Below are positions 1 through 41,344 of a stretch of 64,000 nt of DNA, in pieces. The stretch comes from an uncultured Chloroflexia bacterium (GTDB lineage: Bacteria > Chloroflexota > Anaerolineae > Caldilineales > Caldilineaceae). Made by a program: the position numbers and the translations under genes. Location of the stretch: positions 462,993-526,992 of the forward strand of contig CAVVYP010000007.1 in the NCBI GenBank assembly GCA_963752485.1, written 5' to 3'. The notes below the pieces were generated by a model. It did not search any database. It was given only the letters and a program-made list of their open reading frames with translations, and was not told the origin of the DNA. How positions within the stretch are numbered: position 1 is the stretch's first letter; each line of letters opens with the position of its first letter.

Positions 1-3000
1 CGCCCAGGCCAACCGCTCATAGCGCCACACGGTCTGGCCTGCGTAGTTGCTGTTCTCACCGTTCACCACCCACGGAATCTTCAGGAAGGTATCGCCGTAG
101 TTTTCCGAGCGGGTGTAGTAGGCGTCCGTGGGCGGAGCCTCTGGGGTCACGCTTTGGCCGCCCGTGGACTTGACGTTTTCGCCCGCGCCCGGCCACGAAG
201 AAGATGTTATCCAGATACTCGTCTTCCATGAAGCGGAGGACGGGCAGGGCAGGGTCGCGGCCGTCCACCGGGAAGACCGGCGGCGTGGCGCCAACTCGCG
301 GGTCGGACGAGGTCTCTTTGTTGTTATCGAACTCGGAGACCTTGATGGCAGGTTGGAACTCACCCGGGCCGATGTATGTGCCGGTGATTTCGCATTCACA
401 GACCGCGCCTTCTTCGCACGGCGGACACCAGTCCACACATTCCGGATCGAAGCCGTCGTAGGTGGGCGGCGCATTGCCGCTTCCGTCCTCGTCGGGCACC
501 GTCGGATCCGAGCGCCATTCTCGACAGAAGTAGACGCCTTCGCTATCCGTCACTCCGTCGCCGTCCACGTCGGCCGGAGTGGTTGTCCACGTCTGACCGC
601 CATCGAACGACTTGCGCAGGTAGAAGTTGTAGCGGTCGTTGCCGTTGCGAGCCGCCGCCCAGTTGGGCGACCAGGCGTAGGCCGCCACCACGAAGTCGCC
701 GCGGATGAAACCGCGATGGCTGCGTGCGTTGGAGTACATGCCGGCGCAACTTGTCTCATCACACACCGAGGTGTCGTCTACGCCGTAGGATTCGTTGCCC
801 AGGTTGTACGAATGCTGCGACCAGAGCAGCACCTTATCCGTGCCATACACATCGTCCGTGGGATCGTCAGGCGTATCGTCTTCGGGCCCGGCGTCCACCG
901 CGAGGTCGACGTCGGCCGAGGTCAGGTTGACCTGGTCGCGTCGCTCATAGCCCAGATGCGATCCGCGGGCCTCCCGCCGCAGAGCCGGTCGCCACTGGCC
1001 TCGCCCCAGACGTTGCACAGGTAGCCGGTGTCGCTGGACATCCTGCCGTCGCCGGTCGGGCACGACGGCAGATCGAAGGTCTCGTCCAGGTAGGTCGTGC
1101 ACTGGAAGTCTCGAAGCTGTAGGGATTACCCCGCCCTGGTTCACGATGCCACGGGTGAAGACGTCCGCGGGGCGGCCCATGCCTTCCGGCCCTGCTTGAA
1201 GATAATGTTCGCCACGGTGCCGGAGGGGCCCGCCTGCCCGGGGCCTGTCAGAAGAAACGGGCGCGGCGTGCGATCTCCGTGCGGAACTGGAGGAACTGGG
1301 TCTCGTCCGGCATCCACTCGCCGGTGCCGTCGCCGTTGTCCACATACTGGTCAAAGTAGAGCGGAAGGGCAGGCCCGGTGTACAGGTGCAGGTCGGGCGT
1401 CCGCGTCTCGCAGTAGTTCGGGTAGAGGCCGCCGCATAGGGCCGGCAGGTTCACGATGTGCCCCGCCGACACAAGGTCCGGCTGCGTGAGGTCGAACCAA
1501 TGGCAGATGAGTTCTTACCGAGTCCTGGCGGATCGCTGCTCTCGCCGCCTTCGCCGGGAACGATCTCGCCCGTGTCACCGCCGCCTTCGTCGTGGGCCTC
1601 CGCGGCCAGCGAGTGGCCCATGCCCTTGGACTCTTCATAGGAGAGCAGCACCCAGGCGCTCTCCGTGCCGTCCGGCTTCGTGTAGGTTTGGAGGTGGATG
1701 TTGGAACGGGATGCGCTCCATCACGTCCAGCAGGCGACGTCCGAAGAGATGCGACTGTCTTTGTGCTGCCCTCAGTGTTTATGAAGCGGTACCAGCGCTC
1801 GTGCGCCGTGCTGCCCGGCATGTCCAACATGATGCCGTCGATGTCGCCGTGGTTATCCGACGTGGCGCAGAGGCTCGAGCTTATCCGTGCGACAGGCGCG
1901 ACGCTGGCTCTCCGGGGCGAGGCAGGCAAAGGGCTCGGGGCTCACCGCGTCGCCATGTATCCGACCTCGTCCTGGGTCCATCGGTACGTAGGAACCGGTC
2001 GCTGGGTCAAATGGCGGGCAGCTCCGTGTCCGCATCCAGCGTGACCTTCAGCGGTACCCGGCGCTCACGATGTCATTGTCGGAGATACGCACCGGCAGAG
2101 CGAAGGGGAACGAACGCCTTTCGCCGGCCCAGGCCCGGGCTTTTCGGTCCGGGCTGCTGCTTCCGGCGGGCTGCTGGTATGAAGCGCTCGTCGAGTATGG
2201 AAAAGTCCTCTTGCGTGATGTAGGGGTATACTTGATGTTCTCGGTCTTGCGCATTGGAAGATGGCTCTGCTCGAACCTTCGCCGGGGCCCTTACCCTTGC
2301 CGGGGCGCAGACCGCGGTCCTCCCGCCAGGCGGATGGCAAAGCCGGACCGTGGCAGGTTGCCCGACCATCGGAGTTGAAAGCATCGTGGCGACCGGAGGT
2401 GATGCGCTCGGGCTCGAACCGGACAGATGTTGCTTATCCCGCGACCGCCTCGCTCTCGTCCCTCTCTTCTGTATCGGGATCGTCCAGCCCTTGTCGATGG
2501 GGAGGCGAAGCGCCTGCTGTCGAGGTCCGCCTGCGTCGAGATCGATGCTGTGGCTGCTGCATAGTGCTCTGCACGGGATCCCGCCGATGCCGAGGTCGGC
2601 GACGTTGTCGCATCTCGTCATAGTTGACCGAGCCTTGCTGACCGAGGACGCGCCAGATGTCATTGACAAAGTATGCGTCGTCATACGGGTAGTCGGGCTC
2701 GCAGACTCGCAGAACCCTGTCTGTGTTGCTGAAACAAGAGACTGCGGAGCCCGGTTCCGGTGTTTCGGCCTCTCGGTGTGTCTGGTTGATCGCCCAGGTC
2801 AACGGCGTAGCGTGGGTCGCTGTTTGCGGGTGTATGTGCTCGTCGACACGGCAAGGATGCGATTGTTGTTTATCTTCTATTCTGCGGAGACGTAGTGTGC
2901 CCGGGAAGGGCTGGCCCGTCTCGAGGTCGAACGAGGAGAAGCAGTTTGGCCATGTGTGACACATTCATGCGCTTCCACGGGGCTGTCGTTGTCGCGGGAG

Positions 3001-4500
3001 AGACTGCTATGTGACAGTTGACTGGCGAAGCGATCGTCCCAGAACTGGGTTGTGACATCGTCGTCGAGGACTCCGATCTCGCCGAGATAGCTCGACGGCG
3101 AGGGGTTCGGTCTCATCGCTGAGCACTGTGATGAGCGTTACGCGGCACGTCTCTTCGTCGACATAGTTGCGCTGGTCGCACTTCTTCCGTCGTTGGACTC
3201 GTCATACAGCTCGATACCCTCCGTACGCTACGCCCAGGGCGTCGCCTTCATCCGGGTCGTAGAGGCGGTCGCCGTTCACGTCCCACACAGCAGGGACTGG
3301 TTGCCATTGGAGCGGTAGCCGGGGAACCAGAGCGGCACGACCTCGATTTCGCCGGGCTGCTGTTGCTGAATTTTCTTGTTGTCTTGGTGACGTTCTTGCG
3401 GGGGAAGATGCCGCTGGCGCTGATGCCGTCGGTCAGGTTCGGCTGCGCTTGCTCGGCAGAGAAGACGACGAGCGTCGCCTCCGGGTTGCTGGTGGACACC
3501 GCGGTGCTTCTCGGCGATGAGTGTATCTGACTCAGACCGTCGTCGACCGGTCGACGTTGCCGGATCCACGGCAAGGTTCGCGGCCGCCGTGTTCAACAGC
3601 CCCGACGCTGGGCCAGATGTCGATCCCCGCCTGTGGGTTTCTCGTCCGCGTCCATGCTCTCGAGAGCCGGGTCACGTTCGTCATGGCCAGGTCTTCCACG
3701 TCGGCCATGAAAATGTTGAGCGGCGAGATCTTGTTGCCGGTTTCCGCCTGGCCCAGATAGACGTTGCCGACCCACAGGTCGACGCGGCTCTGCTGGGAAT
3801 AGTCAAAGCTGCCGGCCTCGTCGGTCAGGCCCGAATTGCTCGGGGTAGCGAAGCCCAGGCCGCCCACAGGCGAGGTCGAGAAAGTGGCGGGCGACGGGGT
3901 GTGCAAGCTGACAGTCGAAGGTCCAGCGGACTTCGAGCCGCGTTTAAAACTGGTCCGGACCGTAGGCTGCAGAGACGCTGCTGTTGCGCCCCGCTGCGCC
4001 CGTTTCCGTCCAGGTAGTAGAGCTGAGCGTGGACAGATGGCGATGGTGGGGAAGCGGTAGTCCGACGACGTGCCGCGAGACTTGAAGCCCCAAGTCCTCT
4101 TTGAGGTCCAGGGTAAGTTGGTGCACGGTGGTCGGGGAAACCTTGGTACGCTTCGTAAACGGGGACTTGCCTGGTATGGGTTTCCGTTGTTGGCCGCCGG
4201 AATCGGTTCAAGTCCGGGTAGCCGGCGTAGACCATGACTGGCCTGATGGCTGCAGCCCTCCATGGGCTCGACCTTGACCATCAGCTCTTGGGTGAGTCCA
4301 CAACTTTCACCGTGCCCATCTCTTCGTCTTGTTGGTGAGTAGCGTGGCCTCATGGGTCCCGGCCCCACGGAACCGGCGCGGGCGCCGGCGACGCTGGGCA
4401 GGAAAGCAGCAACGCGAAACAACAATGGGATAACTATATCAGCGTACCCATCCTGCGTTCCATGATTGCCCCCTCTCTTTGAACTGCATCTTGGACGCAC
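1..4500 (-). pseudogene. Remnant of a very large (>1400 aa) extracellular protein with BNR/Asp-box repeats. It is broken into at least 8 frames and runs off the window start.
   Basis: Protein-like minus-strand segments in successive frames (ORFs 56..1354, 1248..1472, 2434..2964, 2877..3116, 3248..3574, 3532..4500). Asp-box motif SFDGGQTWT is present. Composition is plausible for a real protein (e.g. ENYGDTFLKIPWVVNGENSNYAGQTVWRYERLAWA at the window edge). No single frame is open for more than about 430 aa. Confidence 0.4.
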
Positions 4501-5247
4501 GGCGTACGAATCCGGAGGCCCGTAAACTTTTGGATGAATGAATGTGATGTCATGGTCAGTTCTCGCGTCGGCGATCCCTGCATCCTTGCGTCACAGCCGG
4601 CCCGGGCCAAGCGAACCGTCTGCTCTCAGCCGGCTATCGAAGATGCGAAGCTATGTTCCGTTCCGCCGAGCGGCGGATCGTGCGGTGGAGCGCCGTCCGA
4701 GACGGACACCGAGACCGGTGGAGACGAGCATGTTGGGGAGGCACTGTAATCGCGGCTGTTCGCATCACGATCGCCCGGTCGCTGTTCAGGTCGACGCCGA
4801 GAAGCATGGTCCCGGGCAATCCATACAGCAGGGATAGGATGCGGCACGACAGCGGAGTTCCGATTTCGAAGACGATCGGGCTCGGGTCTGAGCGCTGCGG
4901 CACAGGTCTTGATGTTGAAACCTGGGGGTTCATTCGTGTCTACGGAAATCGAATGCCTCTCCATCAAAGAGAGCGCCAACGCCTTCCATGAGAACGGAAT
5001 CCCTACGACTAGAACGCCAGGCCCGCGTGTTCATATACGGTCTACCCGTGGCGGTCGGCCGTTCTTTGCGGCCGACGTCTCGAGTGAACGGCGGACACGG
5101 GCGCGCTTCAATCGTTCTTCGCCTCATCGAGGCATGAACAAGAGTAGCCTCGCTAGGCCGAAGCGACCGGCGAGTGATAAATTCGCTCCGTTTAGGAATG
5201 AGTGAGCCAGTTCGGGGCCGGGCAGGGGAGGTGATTCACCGGCGACC

Positions 5248-25647: not shown

Positions 25648-25798
25648 TCAACGGCTTGTCTGTCACCCAGACGCGTGGAAGAATCTGATTGTTTCCCTTC
25701 CAAGTCCGACGGCCATCCGTCGATGGCCGTGTCGGACTCCATTTGTTGACAATGCGTTGCGAGTATCTCAATGATTGGTCCGACTACCTGGAGGCATC

Positions 25799-27255
25799 AT
25801 GTCTATATATGAACCAAACCCCGCAATCGCGGCTGCGGAGGCGAGCGTAGCGGCCTTGGCGCCCGCAGCGGCAGATGACGCAAACCGTCCCCTCTATCAC
25901 TTTCGCCCGCCGTGCTGTTGGATGAACGACCCAAACGGGACGATCTACCATGACGGGTGGTATCACGTTTTCTACCAGTTCAATCCCTATTCAGACGTGG
26001 CTGGGCAGATCCACTGGGGGCATACGCGCAGCCGGGACCTGGTGCACTGGGAACAGTTGCCGGTGGCAGTGTGGCCGTCTACGGAACTTGGCGAGGAGGC
26101 GTGCTGGTCGGGATGTGCGGCGGTGACCGGGGACGGTGCGCCGATCGTGTTCTACACAAGCCGCGGCACAAACAATGTGCGTCCCTTTGAACAGTGGGCG
26201 GCAGTCGGCGACGACGAATGGATGACGTGGCGCAAGCATCCCGCGAATCCGATTCTGGCGCTGGGCGAGGGCGGCGCGCCCCGCTTTGAGCCGGACTGGC
26301 GCGATCCGTTCATCTTCCACACTGCGGGCCGGACGTTCCTTGTGTTGGGCGCAGCCACGGCGCGACGAGGCGAACGTGGCGCTGTTCGAGACGGAGGATG
26401 CGGAACTGGCAGAATGGCGTTATCGCGGCGCGATCTATACGAAGCCGCGCAGCGAGATGCGGTTTTGTGAATGCCCGAATTTCTTCCCGCTAGGCGACAA
26501 ATTCGTGCTGTTGCTTTCGCCCTATCGAGCGGTGGAATATACGGTCGGCGAATTCGACGCAGATCAGCTCACGTTTACGCCAGAGGCGCACGGCATTCTC
26601 GACCCCGGCGTTTCGCGCTTGGACCACCGGGGCAATGAGACCGGTGAGGCGGAACATGCCAACTACTATGCCACGAATATCGCATTCGATCCGGACGGCA
26701 ACTGTATTCTGTTTGGCTGGGTGCGCGGATTTCGGTCCGGGCAGGGATGGAACGGCTGTCTGGCGTTGCCGCGCGTACTGACGCTGGGCGCGGACGGACA
26801 CCCGCGGCAGGCGCCTGTGCCGGCCGTGGAGATGTTGCGCGGTGCGCAGGTGGCGGATATCGGCGAGGTTCGCGATCGACGACGGGGCGCAGGCGCTGGC
26901 GGGCGTGCGTGGGGAGGCGCTGGAGCTGCAGTTCAGCGTGTCGCTAGAGTCGGCGACGCGGGCGGGTGTGCGGCTGCGCTGCGCTGCGGACGGCGCAGGC
27001 GGTCTGCCCATCGAGTACGATGGCCGCGTGCTGCGCGTGAATGAGACAGTGGTTGAATTGCCGGATAGAGAACAGGTGACGCTGCGCGTGTTCCTGGACC
27101 GGACCGTGATGGAGGTCTTCGTGAATGACGGCGAACGCGCCATCACGCAGGTGGCGTATGCGGATGCCGCGAACCTCGACGTATGGCTATATGCGGAGGG
27201 CGGCGCGGCGGTGTTCGAGGATGTGCGTGCGTGGGAGATGGGCTCGATTTGGTAG
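25799..27255 (+). pseudogene. GH32 beta-fructofuranosidase / fructan hydrolase, with at least 2 frameshifts (about 26340 and 26870).
   Basis: WMNDPNG catalytic motif. The later section including FCECPNFFPLG and the C-terminal beta-sandwich lie in frames +2 and +3. Confidence 0.7.
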
Positions 27256-27649
27256 ACGGGATGAGATGGGACGCTGAGCTGACAGATATTCGCCGATCCT
27301 CTAGGTGGGCTGCATACAGGGCGTTCTGTTTCGATTTACCGGCGGAAGGGCGGCGATCTGCCAACTTGCCGTTTGAGACCGCGAAAGAGTGTGCAGGGAG
27401 AGAGGAGGGAGGGGGGCACGTGGTCCAGGCGTGCCCCCATCCCGAAAGAGGAAACGTACGAGGGTGAAGCCGTGAGCGAGACGGCCGAGGGGTGTTTCCA
27501 ACAGGTCCTGAACACAATATAGCACATATGTTCTATCTTGGGAAGGGGAAATAATTCCGATTTCCGCGCAGCGCTCGTAGCGGGAAGCGCTCACCGAGGT
27601 TGCAGCCAGTGAGGCAGGGATCGGGTGGACGAACGGGGAATACTGAACA

Positions 27650-34579: not shown

Positions 34580-35417
34580 GTGCAAGAACCAGCGCAGAAT
34601 GAAGCGATCCGGCTGCTGCCGCAACCCGCAGCGCCACAACCACTGGAGGGGCTCTATCTGGGGCATGATGTTCGGCGGCTGGCGGCAGCCGGCGGCCGGC
34701 CCTTCGTCTACGCCAACTTCGTCGTCAGCCTTGACGGGCGTATCGCCGTGCCGGACAAGACGCAGGGCGGGCTGAAAGTGCCCGCGGCGACCGCAAACGA
34801 GCGGGACTGGCGGCTCTTCCAGGAGCTGGCCGTGCAGGCGGACGTCATCATCACCACGGGTCGCTATCTCCGCGACTACGGGGCCGGCAAGGCGCAAGAG
34901 ATTCTGCGCGTACAGGACGACCCTGCGTTCGCAGACCTGGCTGCGTGGCGACGGGCGCGCGGAATGTCGCCGCAGCCCGATTTGGCTGTGGTCAGCCGCA
35001 GCCTGGACTTCCCGATTCCGGAGGCGCTCCACGCGCAGGGGCGGCGTGTGCTGGTCGTGACAGATGCAGGCGCAGACGCGGCCCGCGTAGGGGAAATCGA
35101 GCGACAGCTCGGCGAGGTGCTGGTGGCGGGCGCAGAGGGCGTACGTGGCGACGAGTTCGTGGATGTTCTCGCCGCGCAGGGGTACCGAACGGTCTACAGC
35201 GCGGCAGGCCCGCGCATATTGCACATGCTGCTGGCGGCCGACGTGCTGGACCGGCTATACCTGACGACTGTACCGCGTGTATTGGGCGGTGACCCATTCG
35301 CGGCGATTGTGGACGGGGCCATGCTGGACACGCGCCGTGGATATGCCCCTGCGCACGCTCTATTTCGATGCAGCGGGTGTGGACGGGTTGGGTCAGTTGT
35401 TCGCGTGCTACGAGAGG
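34580..35417 (+). pseudogene. RibD C-terminal / dihydrofolate-reductase-family pyrimidine reductase-like protein, frameshift near 35340.
   Basis: FVYANFVVSLDGRIA motif. The true C-terminus PLRTLYFDAAGVDGLGQLFACYERDR lies in another frame. AGGAGG RBS before the GTG start. Confidence 0.65.
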
Positions 35418-35754
35418 GATCGGTAGCGCCCACGGTCGTGCGGTGGATGTTGCTGCGCGTCCAAGGTGGACGCGCAGATGCGGCGCGCGCCGGATTCGCT
35501 GGCAACGGCTCCTCCGCACGATGCCCTGGCTCGGGCAGGCATGGCTCGAGTTGGACGGCGCAGGCAATGGACGGCGGGAGAGAATCGGGGGCCCTCCGCA
35601 TGCAGAGATTGACCGGCCGCGCCTCCACTGCGCGCGTGCAAGTATTGCGCCGGCTGCAATCCGGCCACATTCGCTACGACCGATCCCGGATTTCCGTTGA
35701 GAATGGCTGTTGTGTGAAATACGGGCGCACAAATTGTTCCGCCAATCTCCGACA

Positions 35755-35808
35755 TTGGACAGACCAGAACTTATGTTCTATAATCGCCATTAGAACATAA
35801 GTTCTGGT
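35755..35808 (+). promoter_or_regulatory. Promoter TTGGAC-17-TATAAT embedded in a 19-bp perfect inverted repeat (35761-35779 / 35790-35808). The repeat carries two GAAC-N4-GTTC LexA/Cheo-type boxes.
   Basis: Arms GACCAGAACTTATGTTCTA and TAGAACATAAGTTCTGGTC. The 10-bp spacer contains the -10 hexamer. The arms fill the -35/-10 spacer and the +1 region. Confidence 0.6.
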
Positions 35809-35838
35809 CCGGCATTCGTCCAACAGGAGATGCACGCG

Positions 35839-36126
35839 ATGAGCAGACGATTCGAGATTCCGCAACAACAGAGCTGGGTCGGCCCCATCCTCCACGCCGC
35901 CAAAACCGCCAGACCCGGGGACACCATCGTGGTGCACAGCCACGCCCAAGACAACTTCCTCCACCGGGAACTCGTCGAGATCGGCAAGCGCGGCGTCAAT
36001 ACCGTCAACACGCGTCGCCTTACTTCCACCGCCCGCCCGTATGACGTACGCGACTCTGCCGAGAATGCCGAGAAGCTCTACAACTGGATCCAGCAACAGG
36101 CGGACGCCGCCCGCCAGCGCATCTGA
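35839..36126 (+). CDS. Small soluble protein (95 aa) of unknown function, a candidate LexA-regulated gene.
   Basis: AGGAG RBS 9 nt upstream of the ATG. No TM segment and no recognisable motif. Sits directly downstream of the twin-box promoter. Confidence 0.55.
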   Translation: MSRRFEIPQQQSWVGPILHAAKTARPGDTIVVHSHAQDNFLHRELVEIGKRGVNTVNTRRLTSTARPYDVRDSAENAEKLYNWIQQQADAARQRI

Positions 36127-36437
36127 CCAAATTTTCGGCGCGCGACCGGCACTGTAGCAGACCTGGTTCCCATTGGTTCGCCGGACTTGCGGGCGACGTA
36201 TGTGCTTGTTTCCCCTTGCGCCAGCTGGATGATGCGCACGATAGCAAACGGCTTGCGCCGATAGTCAGTCCTGCGCCCAATGCGCCTGGGCGAGCCCTGA
36301 TTTCGCCGCAGGACCAATATCGCTGAGGAGATACTGGCGGCAATATGCTTTTTCGGAGCGCGCCCGAAATCGATTATAGTTGTGCTGCATCGCGTACGTG
36401 GAAATCAACCACATTCATCCAGCGGGAGGACCATACT

Positions 36438-36842
36438 ATGGCATCTGTGATTGACATTGAAGGCATCGGTCCAGTCTATACCAAGAAACTCAAGGAAGTT
36501 GGCGTCGACACAGTAGAGGAACTGTTACAGGCCGCGGCTTCGCCAACGGCTCGGCAAGAACTCGCCGACAAGACTGGCATCTCGAGGAAGCGCATACTTT
36601 CTTGGGCAAACCGCGCAGATCTGTGGCGTATCAGAGGTGTCGGCGAAGAGTACACAGATTTGCTGGAAATGACGGGCGTCGATACCGTGCCCGAACTGGC
36701 GCAGCGCAATCCGAAAAACCTGTATGAGACCATGACAAACGTCCAAACCGAGCGCAAACTAGTGCGCAAGATGCCGACTGAGTCTCAGGTCCAGGACTGG
36801 GTAGAGCAAGCCAAGACACTGCCGCGTGTCATGACCTACTAA
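36438..36842 (+). CDS. DUF4332-type protein with two helix-hairpin-helix motifs.
   Basis: IEGIGPVYTKKLKEVGVDTVEELL and RIRGVGEEYTDLLEMTGVDTVPELA HhH repeats. GGAGG RBS. Confidence 0.6.
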   Translation: MASVIDIEGIGPVYTKKLKEVGVDTVEELLQAAASPTARQELADKTGISRKRILSWANRADLWRIRGVGEEYTDLLEMTGVDTVPELAQRNPKNLYETMTNVQTERKLVRKMPTESQVQDWVEQAKTLPRVMTY

Positions 36843-36870
36843 CGCGAAAATCCGCCAACCGCGTAGCCCT

Positions 36871-38443
36871 ATGCGTCTCCTTGTAACAGGGGCGGCCTGC
36901 CTTCTCGGCAGCGCCGTCCGCCTCGCGTTGCCCGCATCGACGCCAGTTCGCGCCGTGGATATCGCCTTCACAGGGCCTATCGACGGCGCAGAGATGATGC
37001 CCGGCGACCTGCGCGATGCGGATTTCATCGCGCATGCGTTGGACGGCGTCACTGCGATCCTGCATCTCGCACCTCTCACTACTCGTCTCGAGGACGATAC
37101 CGCGTCCCTGGACCACGCCACCCGCGGCACATACCAGCTTGCCCTCGCCGCGGCCGAAGCCGGTGTAAAGCGCATCGTCCTCGCCAGCACGCTGGACCTG
37201 TTCAGCGAGCTGTGGACGCGCTACCGCATCGACGAAGGCTGGCGACCGCGACCCCAGCCCCACATCGACCAACTCTGCCCGTACCTGGCCGAAGTCACGC
37301 TGCGCGAAGTCACCCGCGAGACCGGAGTGCCCGCGATCTGTCTGCGCTATGGCGCCATTGTGGACGACCAGACGGTGGAGAACGCGTCAGCAACCGGCAG
37401 ACCTGCGGACCCCCGCTGGCTGCACATCGACGACGCCGTGGCCGCTACCCTCCGCGCCCTGGAAGTTGGAGACAACCGGATGGCAGCTTTTCCACATCAG
37501 CGCCGCCGGTGAACAGGCCGCCGTACCCATCGCACGCGCCGGCATCGATCCCTTCGCGTACGCGCCCGCCCACCGCTACATTGGCCCGGAAGACCCGTTT
37601 CCCGACGCCAGCGTACCCCTGCCGGAGCCCGTGCCGCCACGTCCCATCCGTCGCGTGGTCGTCTTCGGCGCAGGCGGCCCACTGGGCGCCGCAGTCGCTA
37701 CGGAGTTGCAGGACGCCTACGAGTTGCGCCTGGCCGACATCCGCCCGGTCGAAGAAGCCGCAGCCGCCGAACCGCAGTTTCCCGGCGCACCTCTGCCCAC
37801 GCCGCCGCAGCCGCCCCACAGATGGCTCGTCATGGACATGCGCGATGCCGGCCAGGTCATGGACGCCTGCGAAGGCATGGACGCTATCGTCAACTGCTCC
37901 GTCCTGCGCAGCGACCCCGCCGACGCCTTCCGCGTCAACACGGTCGGCGCCTACCATGTCATGCGCGCCGCCGTCGCCCACGATATCAAGCGCGTCGTGC
38001 ATACCGGTCCCTACCTCCTCTCACAGGAAGGCCCGTCCGGCTATCGCTGGGACGACTGGATCGTGGACGATGCGCCCGCTCGGCCCGGCACCGGCTGGGT
38101 CTACCTGCCCTCCAAGCTCCTCGGCAAGGAAATCTGCCGCATCTACGCCGAACACTATGGCCTGGAAGTCCCTGCCCTCGCCTTTGTCCATCTGCGCAAC
38201 CAGGACATTCAGGCGTACCCGGACTCACCGCCGGGCTGGCGACTCTATCCCTTCAGCGTCTCCTGGCGGGATGCCGCCCGCGCCGTGCGCGCCGGGCTGG
38301 AGGTGGACGAGCTGCCCTCGCCCTTCGAATTTGTTCACATCGGCGCCGAGTTGCCCCACGGCGTCTACCCCATGGGCAAGGCCAAGCGCGTTCTCGGCTG
38401 GGAAGCCGTAGACACCTTCGAGAATTTGTACACAAGGCGCTGA
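36871..38443 (+). pseudogene. Tandem fusion of two NAD-dependent epimerase/dehydratase-like domains, frameshift near 37485.
   Basis: Domain 1 MRLLVTGAACLLGSAV…. Domain 2 IRRVVVFGAGGPLGAAVATELQ…YLPSKLLGKE. The two halves lie in different frames. Confidence 0.55.
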
Positions 38444-39020: not shown

Positions 39021-41344
39021 CTACCGCCCCAGCTTGCGCAGCCAACTCGCCATCCCCGCATCATCCGCACCCGCCTCGGCCTCTGGGCCACGCGCCGCCC
39101 GGTACCAGAACTGCACAGCCTCCGGCGCCAGACCCAACGGCTCGAAATCGCCCGCCTTGTCCAGGTCCCGATAGTAGCCGATCACGCGGCGACCCGCTTG
39201 GCGCCGAATCTGGTCCGGCCACGGCGCCCAGTCCCGAAAATAGGTCCATATCCCCCGTTGCACCGACGTCACCGCCATCGCCTGCACATCGCTCTCCGTC
39301 CACGCCACAGGATACTTCGCCGCCGCCGTGCGAATCGACGCCAAATCCAGCAACACCTCGTTGAACCCCGCCTCCACCAGGAACGGGGACGGCTCCGGCT
39401 GCAAATAATAGACGTACAGATGCTGTCGCGCCCGCGTCAGCGCCACATAGAGCAGCCTGCGTTCCTCTTCCAGATTTCCATGCAGATATCGTGGTACGAT
39501 GCCCGGGTTACAGGAAGGCACAAAGACCACTGGCCACTCCAGCCCTTTTGCCGCATCCATGCTGCGGATCGTCACCGCCTCATCGCCCGCCTGCCCGCGC
39601 GCAGTCGCACGCAACTGGTCCAGCCGCTGCACATTGGCCAGGAACGTGGGCAGGTTGCCCCGCCCCTGCGCAAAGGCAAGCAGTTGATGCACCGTCTCCG
39701 CCTCGTCGTCGCCCGTCTCCGACGCGCCATAGCGACGTTGCAAGTACGCACTGTAGCCCAACCGCTCGTCCAGCGCGCGCAGCACGTCATACGCCGGCCG
39801 GCCGGACAACGGCCCGTTCCGAAACGCGCCCGCCAGCCATTGCAGCGTCGCGCCCAGTTCGTGCATCTGCTCCTGGGTGATCGGCTCCAGGCTCGCGCCC
39901 GCGTTGAACAGCGTTAGGTAGACCGGCGCCTGCTGCACCAGCGCCGTCTCCACCACGGCCCGCGCCACCTCGTCGCTGATGCCCCGCTCCGGCCGCGCGT
40001 AGACCTGCTCCCACGAGCGGCGGAACTGGTCGATTTGCGCACCGTTCAAGTACGCGCTCGCGGCCAACTGGCTGTCCATATACGCCAAGCGGCAATAGTC
40101 GATCAGCGTCTGCACCTCCGGCCGCTTGTAAAACGGTTGCTGACCCAGGATCGAATAGGGAATATCGGCGGCCACAAACGCCTGCTCCACCGGCGGCGTC
40201 TGTGCAAACGTGCGTACCAACACCGCCATGTTGCGATACGGGGTGCCCGCCGCATGCCGCTTGTGCACATCGTCCACCATCGCTGCCGCCATCTCACGAG
40301 CGCTGCGCAGCCCCACCACCTCCATGCGCCCGCCCAGTCCCTGTGTCAAGCGCAACGACTTGCGGATGCGCCGCCGGTTGCCGCGGATCACGGCATCCGC
40401 CAACATGAGCGAGCCCGCCTTGCTGCGAAAGTTCTGTCCCAGTGGAAAGCGCCGCGCACTGTACCGCTGGGCAAAGCCGGTCAGGTACCTGGGACTGGCG
40501 CCGTTGCTCTCGTGGATGGCCTGGTCGTCGTCGCCCACTGCCATGTAGTTCAGATGAGGATGCGCCAACAGGTCCAAGATCTCCGACTGCGCCAGATTGA
40601 GGTCCTGGAATTCATCCGCCACGATACAGTCGAAACGGTCGCGAATGCGGTGCACGACGGTCCCGTGCTGATAGAGCATCTCCCATCCGGTCAGCAACTG
40701 GTCGTCCGAAGTGATCAGCCCCATGCGCTGCCGCACGCGCTCGTACAGGTCAAACAGGTCCAGATACCAGGGTAGATGGTCAGGCGGCGTTGCCTGGCTC
40801 ACCAGTTCATTGTAGGCCAGCACCCCGGTCAGCGCGCTCGGCTCCGCATAGCGCAGATTGCCCTTGCACACGGTCACCCACTTGAGAAAATCCTCCGGCT
40901 CCAACGTCTCCAGTTCCGTGACGAACTCTGTCTCCTCGCCGCCGCGCCTCTTCCAGCGTCCGCTGCAGCACAAGCTCGCCCGCACTGCGGATGCGCCGCT
41001 CCCAATCCGGAGCCAGCGTGCGCAGATGACCCTGTCCGTACGCAGCACTGCACTGCGCTGCGGCCCAGCGCATGCAGCGTGACGATCTGGACCTGTCCGC
41101 ATCCCGGATGCCGCGCCAGCCTCTGTCGCAAGTCGGCCGCCGTAGCCCCATTGAGCGCAGCCAGCAGAATGCGTTCCGCCTCAAAAATCTCCTTCTCCAC
41201 CAGGCGCGCCACGCGATAGACCGCCACCGTCGTCTTGCCGGACCCGGCCACGCCCAGCGCGACCGCAGGTCCCCGCTCGTGTTCGACCGCGGCCCGCTGT
41301 TCAGGTGTCAATTGTGCGTACTGCGTTCCGGAAATGGCGTCCAC
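39021..41344 (-). pseudogene. uvrD: UvrD/PcrA-family ATP-dependent DNA helicase, frameshift near 40950.
   Basis: Walker A GVAGSGKTT in ORF 40874..41344. Motifs DEFQDLN, LGQNFRS and VALTRAR in ORF 39021..41102. Confidence 0.7.

Follow-up and report, generated by a model that had tools for sequence, protein, structure and literature searches.

A candidate double LexA-type operator over the predicted promoter of a small orphan gene in Caldilineaceae-like Chloroflexota

The promoter region and its gene

We have analyzed a 64 kilobase (kb) stretch of DNA from an uncultured bacterium of the Chloroflexota (contig CAVVYP010000007.1, 62% G+C), which we call the window. It contains a small gene encoding a 95-residue protein of an orphan family, and the predicted promoter of this gene is overlaid by two palindromic boxes of LexA type. 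The locus was singled out in an earlier note made from the sequence. Its elements are as follows (bp, base pairs; nt, nucleotides).

35756–35761, + strand: −35 hexamer TGGACA, from a consensus scan; CTGGACA or TTGACA at the same place in orthologs
35762–35809, no strand: perfect 19 bp inverted repeat enclosing both boxes; peculiar to the genome of the window, and not the conserved unit
35766–35779, no strand: box 1, AGAACTTATGTTCT (AGAAC-N4-GTTCT), occupying the promoter spacer and touching the first base of the −10 hexamer
35779–35784, + strand: −10 hexamer TATAAT; TATAAT, TATACT, TACAAT, TAGTAT or TATCAT at the same position in orthologs
35792–35805, no strand: box 2, AGAACATAAGTTCT, the exact reverse complement of box 1
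35825–35829, + strand: ribosome-binding site AGGAG, 9 nt upstream of the start codon; GGAG or GGGAG in orthologs
35839–36126, + strand: gene for the basic, soluble 95-residue protein, supported by homologs of 62–100% identity and by codon-position substitutions

A consensus scan of positions 35000–37000 gives a single promoter-like (sigma-70-like) site, TGGACA-17-TATAAT, which matches 11 of 12 consensus positions. The earlier note had read the promoter as TTGGAC-17-TATAAT. The TATAAT stands, but TTGGAC lies 18 nt from it; TGGACA, one base further on, gives the spacing of 17. The inverted repeat is as it had been described, with arms GACCAGAACTTATGTTCTA at 35762–35780 and TAGAACATAAGTTCTGGTC at 35791–35809 that are 10 nt apart and carry two GAAC-N4-GTTC cores. 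It had also been proposed that the arms fill the spacer and cover the +1 position. The spacer is filled by the left arm alone, which extends into the −10 by two bases; it is the right arm, beginning 7 nt past the −10, that covers the predicted +1. Folded as single-stranded DNA the repeat has a free energy of −18.7 kcal/mol (z score = −9.4), which none of 200 shuffled sequences equaled.

GAAC-N4-GTTC occurs twice in the window, at 35767–35778 and 35793–35804, in both cases inside an arm of the repeat. A count of two is not significant by itself, because the mean expected by chance is 0.9 and 25 of 100 shuffles contained at least two sites; it is the position of the boxes and their conservation that carry weight. 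Box 2 begins 8 nt past the −10, and spans the predicted transcription start together with approximately the first 14 nt of the leader. Both boxes are thus placed where a bound repressor would block RNA polymerase, box 1 in the spacer and against the −10, and box 2 over the predicted +1.

The 95-codon reading frame and its AGGAG ribosome-binding site had been identified correctly. The start is taken as the ATG at 35839 and not the in-frame ATG upstream at 35830, because all the orthologs begin MSR. A word-indexed search through 5.8 billion proteins yielded 10 homologs, each of exactly 95 residues and 62–100% identical (alignment A1), with the family signature PGDTIVVHS...Q and a C-terminal helix YNWIQxQAxAARQRI. 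Exhaustive HMMER searching of 1.84 billion representatives contributed no more than the fragment P0011 and the full-length distant relatives P0014 and P0016, and after profile searching the family comprises about 20 clusters. Among eight orthologous genes the substitutions at codon positions 1, 2 and 3 number 682, 574 and 1386, and the excess at third positions therefore indicates purifying selection on the protein. Judged by these substitutions and by the uniform length of its close homologs the gene is real. Within 185,579 species, each represented by one genome, there is a single carrier, a Caldilineaceae metagenome-assembled genome (MAG; Chloroflexota, Caldilineae) with 71% identity, and Litorilinea aerophila has an annotated distant homolog. 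The family appears to be rare and confined to Caldilineaceae-like Chloroflexota.

Conservation of the boxes between lineages

We compared the upstream regions of eight lineages, including the window, in which the identity of the 95-residue protein ranges from 46 to 100%. The sequences of the two boxes are as follows.

Window: box 1 AGAACTTATGTTCT; box 2 AGAACATAAGTTCT
L012 (98%-identical contig): box 1 AGAACTTATGTTCT; box 2 AGAACATAAGTTCT
L013 (Caldilineaceae MAG): box 1 AGAACGTTTGTTCT; box 2 AGAACATGTGTTCC
L005: box 1 GGAACAAATGTTCT; box 2 GGAACAAATGTTCT, a direct repeat of box 1
L001: box 1 AGAACATTTGTTCT; box 2 GGAACATATGGTGA
L010: box 1 AGAACATTTGTTCT; box 2 GGAACCAATCGTTC
L007: box 1 AGAACATTTGTTCT; box 2 GGAACAAATTCTCT
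L021 (46% protein identity): box 1 GACACATATGTTCT; box 2 CGAACATGCGTGCT

Box 1 is an exact GAAC-N4-GTTC in seven of the eight lineages and always abuts the −10. In the most distant lineage, with 46% protein identity, the right half and the AC of the left half remain. In box 2 the GAAC half shows no change in any of the eight, and the other half survives in the window, L012, L013 and L005 but has become degenerate in L001, L007, L010 and L021. In the corresponding alignment (A3) the invariant columns are T.G in the −35, AC....GTTCTA...T covering box 1 and the −10, GAAC in box 2 and two positions of the ribosome-binding site. The remaining columns have diverged, and the mean column identity is 58%. 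The distance between box centers is 24–26 bp in the seven lineages with 62–100% protein identity.

The gene upstream changes from locus to locus, being RibD_C in the window and GH32, a LacI-family regulator or unidentified genes elsewhere, and the conserved footprint therefore belongs to the 95-residue gene. Across the 25 loci that were fetched the motif is found at every close-ortholog promoter for which the upstream region is covered, and at only three other places. The hairpin behaves differently from the boxes. It is present in the window and, with 18 of 19 bases, in L012, but it does not form in L001, L005, L007, L010 or L013; in L005 the second box repeats the first in direct orientation, and in L013, L001, L007 and L010 the two boxes have different sequences. 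The alignment indicates that the conserved functional unit is a pair of separate 14 bp palindromes and not the 19 bp hairpin. The proposal that the inverted repeat is an operator thus holds for the boxes within it and fails for the hairpin as a unit. That the two boxes constitute an operator over the promoter of a conserved soluble orphan gene is well supported by these comparisons.

A further arrangement was seen between the boxes in L001 (3212–3236) and L010 (485–509). The sequence GGTTCCGGAAC contains an inverted GTTC-N2-GAAC, which arises where the −10-proximal flank joins box 2.

Candidate repressors and other roles for the repeat

GAAC-N4-GTTC is the LexA motif of the Firmicutes and Actinobacteria (PMC4951493), and the boxes match it in core, in spacing and in their AT-rich spacer. 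The earlier note had extended this consensus to the Chloroflexi. For that phylum the same article speaks of variations of the motif, derived from the study of Dehalococcoides ethenogenes (Fernandez de Henestrosa 2002, cited in PMC4951493). The LexA boxes of D. ethenogenes are thus of Gram-positive type and come from the same phylum, although from the class Dehalococcoidia where the present host appears to belong to the Caldilineae. No transcription factor is conserved beside the 95-residue gene in the loci compared, which points to a trans-acting global repressor. LexA of the Cheo/DinR type is likely to be the protein that binds the boxes. Taking the identity of the motif together with published knowledge, we infer with some force that LexA binds them and that DNA damage induces the gene.

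The organization resembles that of the LexA (DinR) Cheo-box operators of Bacillus subtilis, other Firmicutes and Actinobacteria, which have the same core, a 4 bp AT-rich spacer and a 14 bp palindrome. In the B. subtilis type the boxes likewise lie over the −10 and the transcription start, there can be two to a promoter, and the product can be small and lineage-specific. Promoters with several boxes are found in the Gram-positive LexA regulon, for example at lexA and yneA, and LexA regulons often include hypothetical proteins that are specific to a lineage. The difference is that the host here is a Caldilineaceae-like member of the Chloroflexota, a group for which we know of no described LexA regulon, and that LexA binding is deduced from the sequence of the sites. 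There is also a parallel in the lexA promoters of the Verrucomicrobia, where tandem LexA sites, a full site together with one of which only the first half is kept, are bound cooperatively (PMC4951493); L001, L007 and L010 have the same pattern of full and half sites. The Verrucomicrobial motif is however an inverted version, TGTTC-N4-GAACA, unlike the boxes here, and the only tandem pair conserved in full, that of Opitutus terrae, has 2 bp between its sites (PMC4951493), compared with a gap of 10–12 bp here.

Our interpretation, to which we assign a probability of about 0.65, is of a gene transcribed alone from a strong sigma-70-type promoter that carries a double LexA-type operator, AGAAC-N4-GTTCT. 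In undamaged cells one repressor dimer would occupy box 1, within the spacer between the −35 and −10 elements and against the −10, and a second would occupy box 2 over the transcription start. Together the two dimers would keep RNA polymerase out, or would block its escape from the promoter. On DNA damage, self-cleavage of LexA stimulated by RecA would free the promoter, leading to a burst of the basic, soluble 95-residue protein. Repression by occlusion, the identity of the repressor as LexA and a response to DNA damage would all follow from where the boxes lie and what they resemble. The gene is probably under SOS-type repression and inducible by DNA damage.

Several observations weigh against this interpretation. 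The promoter, near-consensus and apparently strong, is predicted from its match to the sigma-70 consensus only. Strict cooperative phasing of the boxes is not evident, because their spacing varies between 24 and 26 bp. The LexA motif of the Caldilineaceae is assumed; no lexA, recA or uvrA is present in the 184 kb examined, and tblastn found no lexA or recA in the window or in 24 fetched loci. No site within two mismatches of the box lies in the region of the UvrD-like helicase gene (39021–41102), a type of gene that is frequently part of the SOS response elsewhere. The lack of a box at this helicase, 3 kb away, is mildly against a local SOS island and says little about LexA. Lastly, sequence, profile and fold searches gave no family or fold match that constrains the function of the protein. 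A tblastn search of PLSDB with B. subtilis LexA gave no Chloroflexi lexA among the 108 records listed of a total of 189.

The operator could be genuine and yet respond to another repressor, a dimeric helix-turn-helix factor of the Caldilineaceae that recognizes GAAC-N4-GTTC and whose signal is not DNA damage. The conserved footprint tells us that something binds and not which protein, and such a factor would be compatible with a helicase that has no box and with DNA in which no SOS core gene of the lineage was found. Yet the 14 bp site has the core, spacing and AT-rich spacer of the LexA motif, no regulator gene is conserved next to the locus, and we know of no other widespread bacterial regulator with a GAAC-N4-GTTC consensus. 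We therefore regard a different repressor as unlikely. Less probable still is that the 95-residue protein, which is basic with an isoelectric point (pI) of about 10, binds the palindromes over its own promoter in the manner of small repressors and antitoxins. Palindromes at their own promoters are typical of autoregulated small DNA-binding proteins. The boxes are found only with the basic 95-residue subfamily and at none of the examined loci of its acidic paralogs of 106–111 residues, and this restriction keeps autoregulation alive as a minor rival. Against it, the order of secondary structure in the AlphaFold model contains no predicted helix-turn-helix, ribbon-helix-helix or AbrB-type motif. 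The protein matches no DNA-binding family, fold searches return generic α/β fragments, and convergence of a new fold upon the exact LexA motif would be a coincidence.

It might also be argued that the repeat acts as a hairpin or cruciform, and that the LexA-like cores are incidental. It would then be a terminator for the upstream RibD_C-type gene, a regulatory stem in RNA, or a site of recombination or attachment. In its favor, the stem has no mismatch and high stability, a gene on the same strand lies upstream of it, and beyond the 10 consensus bases of the boxes a further nine positions match, which is more than the motif alone requires. But no T-run follows the repeat (the next sequence is CGGCATTCGTCC), no terminator-like site was found in 35000–37000, and, as described above, neither the hairpin nor the upstream gene is conserved. 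The terminator or attachment site that the earlier note had itself put forward as the alternative fails on these grounds. The left arm is upstream of the predicted +1 and would therefore be absent from the transcript of the gene, and the leader by itself folds no better than shuffled sequences (z = −0.8). At gathering threshold Rfam gave no match, and permissive searching gave only chance matches of microRNA precursors over the hairpin, far below the cut-offs. No relatives of the 95-residue protein were found in 50,697 phage records, 72,556 plasmids or IMG/VR. The perfect symmetry is better explained, we infer, by recent correction of a quasi-palindrome through template switching. A function for the hairpin as such is very improbable, and a double operator for LexA remains the preferred interpretation. 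We also considered whether the gene might belong to a mobile element or prophage, for instance as an antirepressor under LexA control. This was rejected, given the lack of phage, plasmid and viral-contig relatives and neighbors of housekeeping type (Band_7, TerB, epimerases, the RibD_C gene, the UvrD-like helicase and a two-component system).

The protein, its paralogs and the surrounding DNA

The 95-residue protein had been described as soluble, with no transmembrane helix and no recognizable domain, and our analysis bears this out. Its grand average of hydropathy (GRAVY) is −0.78 and the highest Kyte-Doolittle mean over 19 residues is 0.54, so that no transmembrane helix or hydrophobic segment is found on this scale. 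It has no LysM or other Pfam domain, and there are no significant matches in Pfam, NCBIfam, PHROGs, PADLOC or PDB sequences; the single sub-threshold Pfam match is to Phage_int_M, at 17.2 bits against a cut-off of 27. An AlphaFold2 model based on a 10-sequence alignment has a mean predicted local distance difference test score (pLDDT) of 72. Residues 1–57 are modeled with confidence as a small β-α-β-α-β domain with pLDDT 79–91 and a cluster of conserved polar residues, residues 58–72 as a disordered basic linker and residues 73–93 as a C-terminal helix. The residues invariant in alignment A1 are W13, G15, P16, G27-D28-T29, H33, Q37, G49-K50, T55, N57-T58, R71-D72, N76, W83 and R92-Q93, mostly polar or glycine. 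On inclusion of the distant paralogs H33 is among just four columns that are invariant, and D28, T29, Q37 and K50 are nearly so.

Small SOS effectors are known in several groups, namely SulA, DinI and YebG in Escherichia coli, YneA, ChiZ and SosA in Gram-positive bacteria, and SidA and DidA in Caulobacter. These are small, lineage-specific and under tight SOS control, and like them the 95-residue protein would presumably act by binding a partner. There is no sequence relationship, and the fold here is a generic β-α-β-α-β domain. For DinI the hhalign probability is 0.2%, and SulA and YebG gave no significant match in comparisons made through Pfam only. YneA, ChiZ, SosA, SidA and DidA are membrane-anchored inhibitors of division, YneA and ChiZ with a LysM domain in addition, whereas the protein here has neither a transmembrane helix nor LysM; the earlier remark that it is unlike YneA, SosA and SidA is accurate in that it has no membrane anchor. 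We suggest, with low confidence, that once derepressed it regulates or serves a checkpoint through binding to a partner in the cell, and is not a membrane-anchored inhibitor.

Several matches to the family were discarded. The long HMMER matches P0012, P0013, P0015 and P0017 were judged to be false positives at the level of the motif; P0012, the only one of these that was read, is an unrelated repeat protein. The sole metagenome match, a 704-residue protein of right-handed β-helix type, is a false relative with the common PGDTIVVHS motif. It is encoded at 2626–4740 of locus L025 (metagenome contig Ga0081455_10000619) and has AMPGDTIVVHSGEY near its N-terminus. Right-handed β-helix proteins have an N-terminal ...A.PGDTIVVHSG.Y, and this motif is the likely source of the false matches P0013, P0015 and P0017. 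Such proteins are 700–3600 residues long and have about 10 residues in common with the 95-residue protein, itself predicted to be α/β, and are not relatives.

The genuine distant paralogs are acidic (pI about 5), 109–111 residues long and 25–46% identical. Their genes always lie 18–20 bp after a gene for a SpoT/RelA-type HD hydrolase of 143–161 residues, in two diverged lineages. The hydrolase assignment is to PF13328 (HD_4) and to the N-terminal region of TIGR00691 (residues 3–121). Pairs of this kind are present in L014–L020, as at 3942–4403 and 4421–4750 of L018. This suggests that the acidic paralog and the hydrolase form a functional pair. The Litorilinea paralog gene follows thiI. Upstream of the acidic and Litorilinea paralogs examined there is no GAAC-N4-GTTC. 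The occurrence of boxes upstream of the 95-residue subfamily only would fit the recruitment of one paralog into a stress regulon.

From this it could be proposed that the 95-residue protein is the first of a novel class of soluble SOS effectors restricted to filamentous Caldilineaceae, recruited from a paralog family partnered by SpoT-like HD hydrolases. We consider this doubtful. Were it true, DNA damage could be linked to alarmone or nucleotide signaling, or to a checkpoint of division or replication, by a mechanism unrelated to SulA, YneA or DinI. To our knowledge SOS regulons are poorly mapped outside the Proteobacteria, Firmicutes and Actinobacteria, with none on record for the class Caldilineae. 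If the assignment to LexA is right, the conserved double-operator promoter could be used as a reporter of DNA damage in Caldilineaceae-like organisms. The gene would be the first lineage-specific SOS effector for filamentous Chloroflexota, and would give a handle on a small-protein family whose paralogs couple to SpoT-like hydrolases. The regulatory logic is that of the textbook and the protein is uncharacterized; the value of the locus is incremental until the target of the protein is known. Our literature searches on Chloroflexi turned up only the one Dehalococcoides study that PMC4951493 cites.

The next gene (36438–36842, + strand) encodes a DUF4332 protein with helix-hairpin-helix (HhH) repeats, as had been stated, matching PF14229 with E = 6e-44 and HHH_5 with E = 2e-12. 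It is followed by a fused double epimerase gene and then, on the opposite strand, a 101-residue gene and the UvrD-like helicase. Synteny is strong: as far as the contigs reach, the window, L012 and the L001/L002 lineage have this full order, and L005, L006–L009 and L024 have its first part. The spacer between the 95-residue gene and DUF4332 is 155–311 bp long and poorly conserved, with a possible −10 of its own. Neither the spacer, which has no box, nor the synteny gives support for co-regulation of DUF4332; in L010 the 95-residue gene has its boxes and is followed by no DUF4332. DUF4332 is probably a separate transcription unit, and the regulated unit monocistronic.

Comparison of the window with the 98.1%-identical metagenome contig L012 revealed 36 gap openings in 20 kb, affecting 34580–35800, 36871–38443 and 39021–41102. 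The RibD_C reading frame runs to 35800 in the window, and in L012 it is 281 residues long with a stop that matches 35424–35426 of the window. The double-epimerase gene has 519–523 codons in L001, L006 and L012, and is split in the window into 36871–37512 and 37349–38443. The helicase gene is intact in the window and split in L012. These interruptions look like insertion or deletion errors of long-read assembly, or real pseudogenes, and single-base spacings in the window should be read with this possibility borne in mind. The promoter is separated from the RibD_C stop, at its L012 position, by an intergenic region of about 330 bp (35427–35755), in which no convincing open reading frame or RNA family was found; a minus-strand frame of 115 codons (35408–35755) failed the filter on G+C by codon position. 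Within this region, at approximately 35605–35720, divergence is raised and there are several 1 nt insertions or deletions between the 98%-identical strains, and the adjoining promoter and operator are nearly identical.

A second box-like sequence in the window, AGCACATATGTTCT at 27521–27534, has one mismatch. It lies within a conserved non-coding element of about 125 nt, present at 27413–27534 (+ strand) in the window, at 1579–1700 in L012, at 1407–1528 (− strand) in L001, and in L003 and L004. In the structure predicted by RNAalifold AACGTAC pairs with GTATGTT, taking in the box-like sequence, which pairs upstream within the element and is probably not an operator. The same structure contains a hairpin GGGGCACG...CGTGCCCC with two compensatory pairs. 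The element has no match in Rfam. It lies directly downstream of the GH32 gene (25775–27255), is 79% identical to the region following GH32 in the L001 lineage, and there precedes a 59-residue gene. It could function as a small RNA or as a leader element.

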